Shown here piece by piece: positions 1,320-2,300 of a DNA stretch of 59,521 nt. Made by a program: the position numbers and the translations under genes. The DNA comes from Candidatus Fibrimonas termitidis. GTDB taxonomy: Bacteria > Fibrobacterota > Fibrobacteria > Fibrobacterales > Fibrobacteraceae. The stretch covers positions 401-59,921 of the forward strand of contig LIUG01000158.1 in NCBI GenBank assembly GCA_001462245.1. Reading direction: 5' to 3'. Under the pieces are notes generated by a model. That model did not search any database. It was given only the letters and a program-made list of their open reading frames with translations, and was not told the DNA's origin. Each line of letters begins with the position of its first letter. Position 1 is the first letter of the stretch.

Positions 1320-2273
1320 ATGCAAATTACCACTTCTTCCCAGTTGCGCGGGGTGTTTCCCGCCCTTTTTACGCCGTTGAAAAGCGATGACCCCCTTTGT
1401 TTATATAATTCCATAGATTATGAAAAAACCAAAAAAATGATAGACGACCTTATAGAGGCGGGTGTACACGGCTTTGCTCCTGTGGGAACAACCGGGCAGA
1501 GCGCAACCCTTAGCACTGAGCAGCATTTGGATTTCATAAAGTTCGTGCTGGACTATGTAGATGGCAGAGCGCCGATAATCGCCGGAGCAGGCTCAAACAG
1601 CACAAAGGAATCAATTGAAATAATACAGGAGATTTTAAAAATAGCCGAAGTTCCCATGCTTTGCCTCACGGGTTACTACAACACCCCCCCGCAAGAGGGC
1701 ATTTACGCCCACTTCAAAGCCCTGAGCAGGGAAACCGGCGCAAAAATTGTGATGTACAATGTGCCCGGACGCACAGCCAACTATATGCACCCCAACACCA
1801 TAATAAAACTCGCCGAAGACAAAAACATAATCGGCCTAAAACAAGCCGTTGAATTCCGCATCGGCGAAAAATTCTGCGAAGACACAAAGAGCATAGTTGA
1901 GCAGACCAAAAACCTTGACTTTACCGTTGTATCCGGTGAAGACGGTGCCTTTATAGATATGCTTGAATTTGGCGGCACAGGCTTAATCAGCGCAACCGCA
2001 AACATTCCGGAAGCGGCAAAAATTTTCGTGGACCTATACAATGCTTTCCAAAAAGGCGAAACCGAAGTCTGCGACAAATTGCAAGACGATGCCCGTGACT
2101 ATGTAGAGGCCGTATTCTGCCGCAAAAACCCAATCCCGCTGGGAACCTTTTTCAACAGCCCGCTTTTGCTGCCTTTGGTCAGCGTTAAAGATACCGAACG
2201 CGGCGATGAGGCGGAAATGCGTATTCATAAGCTTGTGAAGGAGAAAGCGCGGAGTTTGCTTAAGTATAGTTGA
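1320..2273 (+). CDS. dapA: 4-hydroxy-tetrahydrodipicolinate synthase family (DapA-like)
   Basis: GTTGQSATLSTEQH, AGAGSNSTKE, MYNVPGRT and IIGLKQAV (Schiff-base Lys context) match the DHDPS/NAL family. TGA stop lies in the first unit of the heptamer array. Confidence 0.7.
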   Translation: MQITTSSQLRGVFPALFTPLKSDDPLCLYNSIDYEKTKKMIDDLIEAGVHGFAPVGTTGQSATLSTEQHLDFIKFVLDYVDGRAPIIAGAGSNSTKESIEIIQEILKIAEVPMLCLTGYYNTPPQEGIYAHFKALSRETGAKIVMYNVPGRTANYMHPNTIIKLAEDKNIIGLKQAVEFRIGEKFCEDTKSIVEQTKNLDFTVVSGEDGAFIDMLEFGGTGLISATANIPEAAKIFVDLYNAFQKGETEVCDKLQDDARDYVEAVFCRKNPIPLGTFFNSPLLLPLVSVKDTERGDEAEMRIHKLVKEKARSLLKYS

Positions 2274-2300
2274 GAGTTGAGAGTTGAGAGTTGAGAGTTG
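2268..2300. repeat. heptamer tandem array (TGAGAGT = GAGTTGA permutation), 4 perfect units plus partial ends
   Basis: Units at 2271-2277, 2278-2284, 2285-2291 and 2292-2298. Contains the dapA stop (2271-2273) and the TTG start (2284) of the next ORF. Confidence 0.95.

Follow-up and report, generated by a model that had tools for sequence, protein, structure and literature searches.

GAGTTGA heptamer arrays between and within genes of Candidatus Fibrimonas termitidis: a dispersed repeat family whose use as a source of stop and start codons is probably secondary

Can a short tandem repeat close one gene and open the next, and if so, was it built for that purpose? The question is raised by a 59,521-nucleotide (nt) stretch of DNA from Candidatus Fibrimonas termitidis (contig LIUG01000158.1; hereafter, the window), in which tandem arrays of the heptamer GAGTTGA lie at junctions between co-directional genes, the first of them between dapA and a gene for an Omp85-like protein. 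The original prediction, made from the letters of this stretch, described four such arrays as a dedicated and strictly oriented intercistronic stop-restart module. Our analysis leads to a different reading, which we consider the probable one: GAGTTGA is a dispersed heptamer family, the placement of which is filtered by purifying selection, and its use at junctions is a secondary co-option and not the work of a purpose-built module.

Tandem Repeats Finder (TRF) detected period-7 arrays at six sites of the window (G+C content 44%), with 3.9-6.7 copies each. The four junction arrays were recovered where the original prediction had placed them, but its list was incomplete, since two more arrays lie within miaA and tsaD.

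Positions 2266-2300, plus strand: array 1, dapA/Omp85-like junction, stop orientation (TRF 2268-2300, 4.7 copies, 100% match); contains the dapA TGA (2271-2273) and the Omp85-like TTG (2284-2286).
Positions 31545-31594, minus strand: array 2, within the miaA coding sequence (CDS), reading TCAACTC along the gene; encodes ..ELSTLNSQLSTPPNSQL.. in frame.
Positions 34382-34416, minus strand: array 3, folB/dprA junction, stop orientation (same limits by TRF, 5.0 copies); contains the folB TGA (34396-34398) and the dprA TTG (34390-34392).
Positions 39368-39394, minus strand: array 4, degenerate, NamZ (DUF1343)/ftsX junction (same limits by TRF, 3.9 copies); contains the NamZ TGA (39375-39377).
Positions 44106-44148, plus strand: array 5, within the tsaD CDS, reading TCAACTC along the gene; encodes STLSTQLSTLNSQLST.
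Positions 44518-44550, minus strand: array 6, ybbR-like/tsaD junction, stop orientation (same limits by TRF, 4.7 copies, 100% match); contains the tsaD TTG (44532-44534).

The window has 20 double units of GAGTTGA with at most one mismatch, whereas 100 shuffles give an expectation of 0.02. All four junction arrays read GAGTTGA along the genes and both intragenic arrays read TCAACTC, so that the strict orientation bias claimed earlier stands for the junction arrays of the window and fails for the copies in miaA and tsaD. Both orientations follow from the unit itself. Because 7 and 3 are coprime, (GAGTTGA)3 contains TGA and TTG in all three frames, as had been predicted; the TCAACTC repeat has no stop codon and no ATG, GTG or TTG in whichever frame. 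Hence the GAGTTGA reading at junctions and the TCAACTC reading within genes. The intragenic arrays occupy definable parts of their proteins. The peptide encoded by array 5, STLSTQLSTLNSQLST, lies within the variable loop of TsaD between the HLEGH and SGGHT motifs. When compared with E. coli MiaA (PDB 2zm5), the residues encoded by array 2 align to an existing segment, ..EVFFISGKTLTEL.., with only about four extra residues, and the miaA array seems to replace native sequence instead of being a plain insertion.

The genes that carry or flank the arrays are housekeeping genes:

Positions 1320-2273, plus strand: dapA, flanking array 1 (Pfam DHDPS, 1.1e-53).
Positions 2284-3426, plus strand: Omp85-like gene, flanking array 1 (Pfam Omp85, 9.6e-08).
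Positions 31058-31966, plus strand: miaA CDS, carrying array 2.
Positions 33532-34392, minus strand: dprA, flanking array 3 (Pfam DNA_processg_A, 7.6e-54).
Positions 34396-34749, minus strand: folB, flanking array 3 (Pfam FolB, 2.7e-20).
Positions 38492-39367, minus strand: ftsX, flanking array 4 (Pfam FtsX_ECD).
Positions 39375-40544, minus strand: NamZ/DUF1343 gene, flanking array 4 (Pfam NamZ_N and NamZ_C).
Positions 43488-44534, minus strand: tsaD, carrying arrays 5 and 6 (Pfam TsaD, 5.3e-87).
Positions 44549-45505, minus strand: ybbR-like gene, flanking array 6 (Pfam YbbR, 5.3e-10).

Junction arrays donate stop codons. Listing and translation of open reading frames (ORFs) bear out the claim that dapA, folB and NamZ take their stops from the arrays: dapA ends in ..KYS followed by the TGA at 2271-2273, folB in ...ELKVES and NamZ/DUF1343 in ...LRIES. 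The stop of the ybbR-like gene, TAG (44549-44551), lies at the extreme edge of array 6, in its imperfect first unit TAGTTGA; the original prediction had not derived this stop from the array. On the downstream side, the longest ORFs begin at an in-array TTG, again as predicted, with the N-termini LRVES.. (Omp85-like), LRVDV.. (dprA) and LRVES.. (tsaD). In array 3 the folB stop and the dprA TTG are separated by 3 nt. The start of ftsX is an ATG (39365-39367) directly after array 4. Ribosome-binding sites of the window have the form (A/T)GAGGT and lie 5-7 nt ahead of clear ATG starts; each in-array TTG has a GAGAG ending 7 nt upstream, which resembles this Shine-Dalgarno (SD) motif, and in the degenerate array 4 the last unit has changed to GAGGGT just ahead of the ftsX ATG. 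Co-directional genes of the window mostly overlap or are at most 20 nt apart; an array landing on such a tight junction must itself supply both stop and start.

The further claim that each in-array TTG is the only plausible start fared differently from gene to gene. It holds for tsaD, in which no in-frame ATG, GTG or TTG follows the array TTG until codon 24, which lies past the conserved motif IWLGIESSCDD. For the Omp85-like gene it is likely, as a later start would shorten the signal peptide; for dprA, which has a second in-frame TTG at codon 6, it fails. Overall, the in-array TTG starts appear to be used, and we infer actual initiation at UUG from these sequence relationships. The database TsaD call for this contig (P0001, 325 aa) starts at the GTG of codon 24 and loses the IWLGIESSCDD motif; this is apparently a misannotation brought about by the TTG start lying in the array.

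TsaD and Omp85 homologs assign the window to the termite-gut Fibromonadales ('Ca. Fibrimonadales') of Fibrobacterota. How stable the arrays are can be judged from relatives, represented by orthologous contigs from independent ENA, JGI and NCBI assemblies. In all four species compared at the dapA locus (window, L270, L271 and L272), dapA ends in ..SLLKYS and a stop (TAT AGT TGA) followed by array sequence. The window array counts about 5 units, against about 6.5 in L272; L270 has about 7, which are degenerate, and L271 a decayed array in which an internal ATG has arisen. Stop-to-start spacers across the four species are 10, 24, 34 and 16 nt, with 24 equal to 10 plus two units and 34 equal to 10 plus three units plus 3 nt. 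Together with the ybbR/tsaD array, which has 5 units in the window and L203 and 8 in L120, these spacers agree with the expectation that a change in unit number alters spacing and spares both frames. In about a third of the 47 Omp85 orthologs, the hydrophobic core of the signal peptide is preceded by an N-terminus such as MRVES, LRVES, MRVW or MKVES, and the MRVES-type N-termini are kept as the charged n-region of the signal peptide. Some Omp85 orthologs (P0139, P0140, P0166) have a second array, in open orientation, in the region coding for the signal peptide, where it encodes ..FITLNSQLSTLNY.. (L272:7687-7722); the P0166 variant is ILHSPFSILHSP.

The other junctions show turnover as well. 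The ybbR/tsaD array is missing from L121, L122, L204, L205 and L206, in which the ybbR stop and the tsaD start overlap: tsaD starts at the ATG of an ATGA-type overlap with ybbR in L122, L204 and L206, at an ATG with its ORF overlapping the ybbR end in L205, and at a TTG within ..ATTGAGTAGTGCAAAT.. in L121. According to the protein alignment, TsaD of these array-free relatives starts 1-4 codons (9 in L205/P0012) ahead of the invariant IWLGIESSCDD. The folB/dprA array of L121 is similar in length but degenerate, and an ATG start has arisen within it (MKNCRIDVLDI versus LRVDVLDI in the window). The window and L121 both have the NamZ/ftsX array (L121 NamZ ends in ..YRELRVESNY), which is missing from L122, where NamZ ends in ..YRDFYISRK; the L122 tail is unrelated and of similar length, and array sequence replaces the NamZ tail in the other two lineages. 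Since relatives manage with ordinary overlaps, the junction arrays are dispensable.

Arrays within genes follow the same pattern of presence and absence. The miaA array is common to the window and L121 and is shorter in the latter by 21 nt, that is, by three units or seven amino acids. The internal tsaD array is present in P0002-P0004, P0006, P0023 and P0045 and missing from other relatives; L206 has it without a junction array. These loci do not behave like phase-variation repeats, in which a change in unit number switches a gene on or off through a frameshift or altered promoter spacing: arrays within CDSs differ by a frame-preserving 21 nt, and unit number at junctions leaves both frames intact. 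Further GAGTTGA loci occur in related Fibromonadales contigs, e.g. at the aroA/nadK junction in L272 and at one junction in L095. Co-directional junction arrays in this sample comprise 8 in sense and 0 in antisense orientation, representing about six independent junctions. These comparisons indicate that the arrays are real and old, that they alter by unit number and by point mutation, and that they contain the stops and, as it appears, the starts in use. The HLEGH-SGGHT loop of TsaD (residues ~128-146 in the window) is hypervariable in Fibromonadales. Several relatives have STLNSQLST in it, and other loop inserts also have a 7-residue period, e.g. LIHSPLSITHSPL in P0052, which suggests that different heptamer families may hit the same loop.

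The family extends beyond this clade. A scan for exact (GAGTTGA)3, with one genome per species, found at least 119 loci, in Bacteroidota, Verrucomicrobiota, Planctomycetota, cyanobacteria, Fibrobacterota, Chloroflexota, Acidobacteriota, Gemmatimonadota, Firmicutes and others. Among the matches listed are isolate genomes (Chamaesiphon polymorphus, Mediterranea massiliensis and Prevotella merdae), the cyanobacteria include Chamaesiphon and Microcoleus, and in BLAST comparisons of the window with 119 of the loci the arrays are the only matching sequence, which means that the species of the window is not represented there. Viral contigs have 49 loci with GAGTTGA, versus 4 and 9 with two control heptamers of the same composition. 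The density of period-7 arrays is 306 per megabase in array-carrying loci versus 12.7 per megabase in 78 unselected control loci, the latter taken from a TsaD-seeded metagenome scan whose listed matches belong almost only to distant taxa. Many of the other period-7 units in array-carrying loci are one-mismatch variants, xAGTTGA. Array length peaks at about 30-35 nt, or about 4-5 units. Two arrays in a Desantisbacteria metagenome-assembled genome (MAG; L110:1598-1909) far exceed this size, with 126 and 185 nt, or more than 40 units in total, in a 551-aa ORF. Exact runs tend to start with AGTTGAG (64 of 191) and, judged by eye, T precedes in several loci, giving (T)AGTTGAG. Element ends and target-site duplications were sought, but the 3' phase is not fixed, the flanks are not conserved and lengths vary, and a discrete transposon-like element is thus unsupported.

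Placement across phyla was assessed with crude longest-ORF gene calls; open-orientation arrays stretch such ORFs, and distances to starts were not used as evidence. Arrays deep within the crude ORFs are in open orientation in 104 of 106 cases (56 of 56 in genomes, 41 of 43 in viral contigs and 7 of 7 in Fibromonadales), the other two being viral arrays called in stop orientation. Ten array-bearing ORFs that were checked are real housekeeping proteins, including Mfd, PheT, a GlnS-type synthetase, NadE, CarAB and two UvrD/PcrA proteins, and arrays compared with Pfam domain coordinates lie between domains or within insertions. About half of the arrays at Bacteroidota and Planctomycetota-Verrucomicrobiota-Chlamydiota (PVC) loci are in frame within coding sequences, housekeeping genes included. 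In a Bacteroidales MAG (L109), one 998-aa ORF has two open-orientation arrays, at 2092-2118 and 2746-2780; one is located between the CarA small-chain and GATase domains and the other exactly between GATase and the CarB pre-ATP-grasp domain, where it may fuse carA and carB.

Co-directional junctions outside the clade carry 46 sense and 29 antisense arrays (33:17 at genome loci and 13:12 on viral contigs). On the viral contig L242, most arrays read TCAACTC along the genes, one of them in a co-directional spacer and the others within or at the ends of ORFs. The search across phyla for ORFs that end or open in arrays covered exact-seed arrays only. In L078, L081, L100, L215, L221 and L246 it found an ORF of at least 100 aa that ends in an array and another that opens at an in-array TTG, the latter with no alternative start for 20-120 codons.

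Arrays also come in pairs. At about 20 loci in many phyla, a GAGTTGA array is followed, after a spacer of 2-146 nt, by a TCAACTC array, and the order of such close convergent pairs is invariant (L019, L031, L057, L060, L067, L079, L081, L095, L100, L107, L108, L114, L118 and others). Some of the spacers hold a GC-rich hairpin of their own. In L271 a convergent pair sits at a convergent gene junction. A sense array at the start site combined with a second array, in open orientation, in the N-terminal coding region is a recurrent arrangement, seen in tsaD (window, L120 and L203), in L095, in L100 and in the L272 Omp85 gene. In the window, arrays 5 and 6 are inverted copies about 370 nt apart, and the predicted fold of the first 481 nt of tsaD mRNA (window 44090-44570, minus strand) pairs them over more than 30 bp, with the TTG start inside the duplex (minimum free energy -167.5 kcal/mol, z = -7.7). 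Promoter and terminator scans around array 1 found nothing at 2266-2300, and the window arrays have no U-tract or T-run such as follows the GC-rich hairpin of an intrinsic terminator. Rfam and tRNA scans of the window found nothing at any array, the only Rfam match being RNase P RNA.

GAGTTGA arrays belong to a known class of bacterial heptamer repeats, together with short tandemly repeated repetitive (STRR) sequences, TAACTGA and GGGNATC. The cyanobacterial STRR heptamers were reportedly introduced by Mazel et al. in 1990. Their units are CCCCAGT, TTGGTCA and CAACAGT, and they have been described as mainly intergenic; we know of no stop or start donor role ascribed to them. GAGTTGA is not predominantly intergenic, as two of the six window arrays are in frame within CDSs. 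Rickettsia palindromic elements, selfish palindromes of ~100-150 bp, are likewise tolerated in frame in protein-coding genes, and GAGTTGA arrays resemble them as short dispersed repeats in loops and linkers of housekeeping proteins. They differ in being tandem heptamers, and the Rickettsia elements do not behave as stop or start donors. REP/REPIN elements consist of an imperfect palindromic unit, form inverted doublets and are mobilised by the RAYT transposase; convergent inverted array pairs are found in many phyla, but the GAGTTGA unit is a tandem heptamer and not a palindrome. Ordinary translational coupling takes place at overlapping stop/start junctions such as ATGA and TGATG. Array junctions are similar in that stop and start lie within a few nucleotides and UUGA overlaps mimic ATGA, and dissimilar in that the junction is made of a repeated unit, with signals in every frame and in several copies.

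Among the closest counterparts is the TAACTGA repeat of marine Beggiatoaceae, cyanobacteria and some Bacteroidetes (MacGregor 2015, PMC4679880). TAACTGA repeats lie mostly a few nucleotides upstream of start codons; the forward repeat has stops in all three frames and can overlap ORF ends only, and 13 sets overlap an upstream stop while being forward with respect to the downstream gene (PMC4679880). Reverse copies are translated within ORFs as a 7-aa repeat, the spread over distant phyla is patchy with no evident transfer mechanism, and S1, Csp and CsrA-like proteins have been proposed to bind the repeats (PMC4679880). GAGTTGA has much in common with this family: its 7-nt units form short tandem arrays, which are numerous and scattered over the genome, forward stops occur in all frames, upstream stops are overlapped, the downstream start adjoins and reverse copies are translatable within ORFs. 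TAACTGA repeats thus follow that placement logic, too. The differences are that the units share only xAxxTGA and the main host here is Fibrobacterota, that the GAGTTGA array itself holds a start codon (TTG) and an SD-like GAGAG and encodes the conserved N-terminal MRVES, that a large share of GAGTTGA copies lies within essential genes, and that convergent inverted pairs are frequent, whereas a single indirect repeat was reported for TAACTGA (PMC4679880).

Long simple sequence repeats (SSRs) with units of 5-11 nt are most commonly heptamers, and slippage has been proposed for them, according to the account of Mrazek et al. 2007 given in PMC4679880. GAGTTGA arrays share with STRR and long SSRs at least three head-to-tail 7-nt units, occurrence at many unlinked loci and copy numbers that vary between related genomes. 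The GGGNATC heptamers of Xanthomonas and Nostoc form G-quadruplexes, have a preferred unit number of four, are enriched between co-directional ORFs and are strand-biased relative to neighbouring stop and start codons (Rehm et al. 2015, PMC4692102). GAGTTGA resembles them in having a preferred unit number, co-directional junctions and a strand bias but has no G-tracts; a second heptamer family of the window, GGGTATR, is the closer match. The original prediction had held that neither the family nor its use had been described. The logic of all-frame stops and the overlap with upstream stops are already published for TAACTGA, so that this part cannot be kept. The other part stands: no bacterial description of the GAGTTGA unit, its double units or the encoded peptide was found in the open-access literature searched, and the paper that named Fibromonadaceae does not mention the repeats. 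The unit, its abundance in Fibromonadales and the conserved use of an in-repeat start codon with an SD-like motif thus appear to be new.

Our favoured explanation, a dispersed family filtered by purifying selection, takes as its basis the observed anatomy of the arrays, their conservation and turnover between species and their orientation rules. Arrays of about 4-5 copies (~30-35 nt) would be seeded at many sites and would then gain or lose units, presumably by slippage, and decay by point mutation. Purifying selection on a feature of the repeat sequence would decide where they survive, a filter that we infer from the placement: copies reading TCAACTC would persist solely as in-frame insertions in loops and linkers, as STLNSQL-type peptides, and copies reading GAGTTGA solely at gene ends. 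A tight co-directional junction would tolerate the GAGTTGA orientation alone, as this restores an upstream stop and a downstream TTG with the SD-like GAGAG. Once such an array is fixed, its codons would be used and the junction array would become load-bearing. In-situ slippage of each junction's own sequence was considered as the sole origin, dapA ending in TATAGTTGA in all relatives, and was rejected, since chance is expected to yield only 0.02 two-unit seeds per window, which is too few. Several observations weigh against the favoured explanation. The independent co-directional junction arrays in the Fibromonadales sample are all GAGTTGA (about six of six), and the dapA/Omp85 array has been kept across species with Omp85-like proteins ~76-80% identical to that of the window; both observations fit positive selection for a function too. 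Array length peaks near 5 units without geometric decay, contrary to what simple slippage predicts, and the identical unit in many phyla, along with frequent close inverted pairs, points to active spreading or to a function in RNA or DNA. Moreover, use of the TTG starts is deduced from comparison of relatives, and the cross-phylum statistics are based on crude longest-ORF gene calls.

These observations bring in the alternatives. A dedicated cassette, selected to end ribosomes in any frame and to restart them at an overlapping UUG (UUGA) with the help of GAGAG, would couple neighbouring cistrons regardless of their frames or of copy number. Such selection would account for stops and TTG starts 3-14 nt apart at the four junctions, for GAGAG at 7-nt spacing, for the dapA/Omp85 array retained in four species with variable unit number, for the further sense arrays with in-array TTG starts (aroA/nadK in L272, and L095), for the uniform junction orientation in Fibromonadales, and for the ORFs of L078, L081, L100, L215, L221 and L246 that end in an array or open from one at TTG. 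It does not account for opposite-orientation copies, which are common within coding sequences, for the mixture of sense and antisense junction arrays outside the clade (46 versus 29), for the TCAACTC array in a co-directional spacer of L242, or for array-free relatives with ATGA overlaps. In addition, TTG has been replaced by ATG in two lineages (L271 and L121), ftsX starts at an ATG after its array, and a GGGTATR array found in open orientation between co-directional genes supplies neither stop nor start. We therefore regard the dedicated, strictly oriented module as an unlikely account of these arrays, though one still deserving of consideration. About as unlikely, in our estimate, is an actively spreading, horizontally transferred mini-element, which would insert some 5 units at a time across phyla and phages, in in-frame loops and at gene ends, often as convergent inverted pairs, and which Fibromonadales would have domesticated into an SD-UUG-UGA cassette; pairing with a downstream inverted copy could then gate initiation, as the model fold of tsaD predicts.

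The inverted pairs may instead be the functional form, with duplexes of ~30 bp acting as RNA or DNA structure elements and single arrays being half-sites or leftovers. The roles proposed for paired duplexes include sequestering start codons, stabilising or terminating transcripts and providing RNase III sites. The roughly 20 close convergent pairs of constant order in many phyla, the pair at the convergent junction in L271, the recurrent association of a start array with an N-terminal open array and the predicted tsaD fold would all suit such a function, yet three of the four window junction arrays stand without a partner nearby, tsaD of L206 has its internal array but not the junction one, and the window arrays show no terminator signature and no Rfam family. 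Besides, inverted copies pair automatically and can arise by template switching without any function. We consider this explanation distinctly less likely than either of the preceding two. More doubtful still is that the heptamers are multivalent binding sites which recruit a DNA- or RNA-binding regulator at 5' untranslated regions and gene junctions. The preferred size of ~4-5 units, the strong preference for GAGTTGA over heptamers of the same composition and the analogous proposal for TAACTGA (PMC4679880) speak for binding; against it, no candidate protein was identified, about half of the Bacteroidota/PVC arrays lie within coding sequences, and the phyla covered have very different translation signals. 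An artefact of assembly or sequencing, or chance low-complexity sequence, has nothing to recommend it except that the sources are mostly metagenome assemblies, and is effectively refuted: 20 matches stand against 0.02 expected, the arrays are shorter than assembler k-mers and occur in isolate genomes, and independent assemblies share orthologous arrays whose substitutions and unit differences keep the reading frames.

Several implications follow for annotation and for the biology of heptamer repeats. Gene callers mishandle array junctions; once the arrays are spotted, starts and stops can be called correctly in Fibromonadales and, probably, in further genomes rich in arrays. Gene ends can be overwritten by a repeat that is selfish or neutral, with ATG changed to TTG and new stops and terminal residues gained, and arrays can add 7-residue repeats to essential enzymes. 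GAGTTGA also offers a second, broader family in which to seek the machinery behind heptamer repeats (STRR, TAACTGA, GGGNATC), and the identical heptamer in many phyla and viral contigs, with its preferred size and inverted pairs, sharpens the question of how such repeats originate and spread.

The second heptamer family of the window, GGGTATG/GGGTATA (GGGTATR), forms two arrays. The array at 33701-33729 is in frame in the dprA linker and encodes ..PHTPYPIPHT... The other, at 40893-40933, has about 6 units and is found 36-76 nt ahead of the ATG (40857) of a hemerythrin gene, in open orientation at a co-directional junction, where it has no stop or start role; with its G3N4 spacing it is formally a G-quadruplex motif and resembles the GGGNATC class (PMC4692102). 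The related Fibromonadales contig L206 has further units, GGGACAT and GGCGAGT-like (17955-17983 and 6505-6527), and Fibromonadales thus host several heptamer families. Elsewhere in the window, at 14821-15181 on the plus strand, there is a bacterial class A RNase P RNA (Rfam RF00010, 312 bits), unrelated to the arrays.

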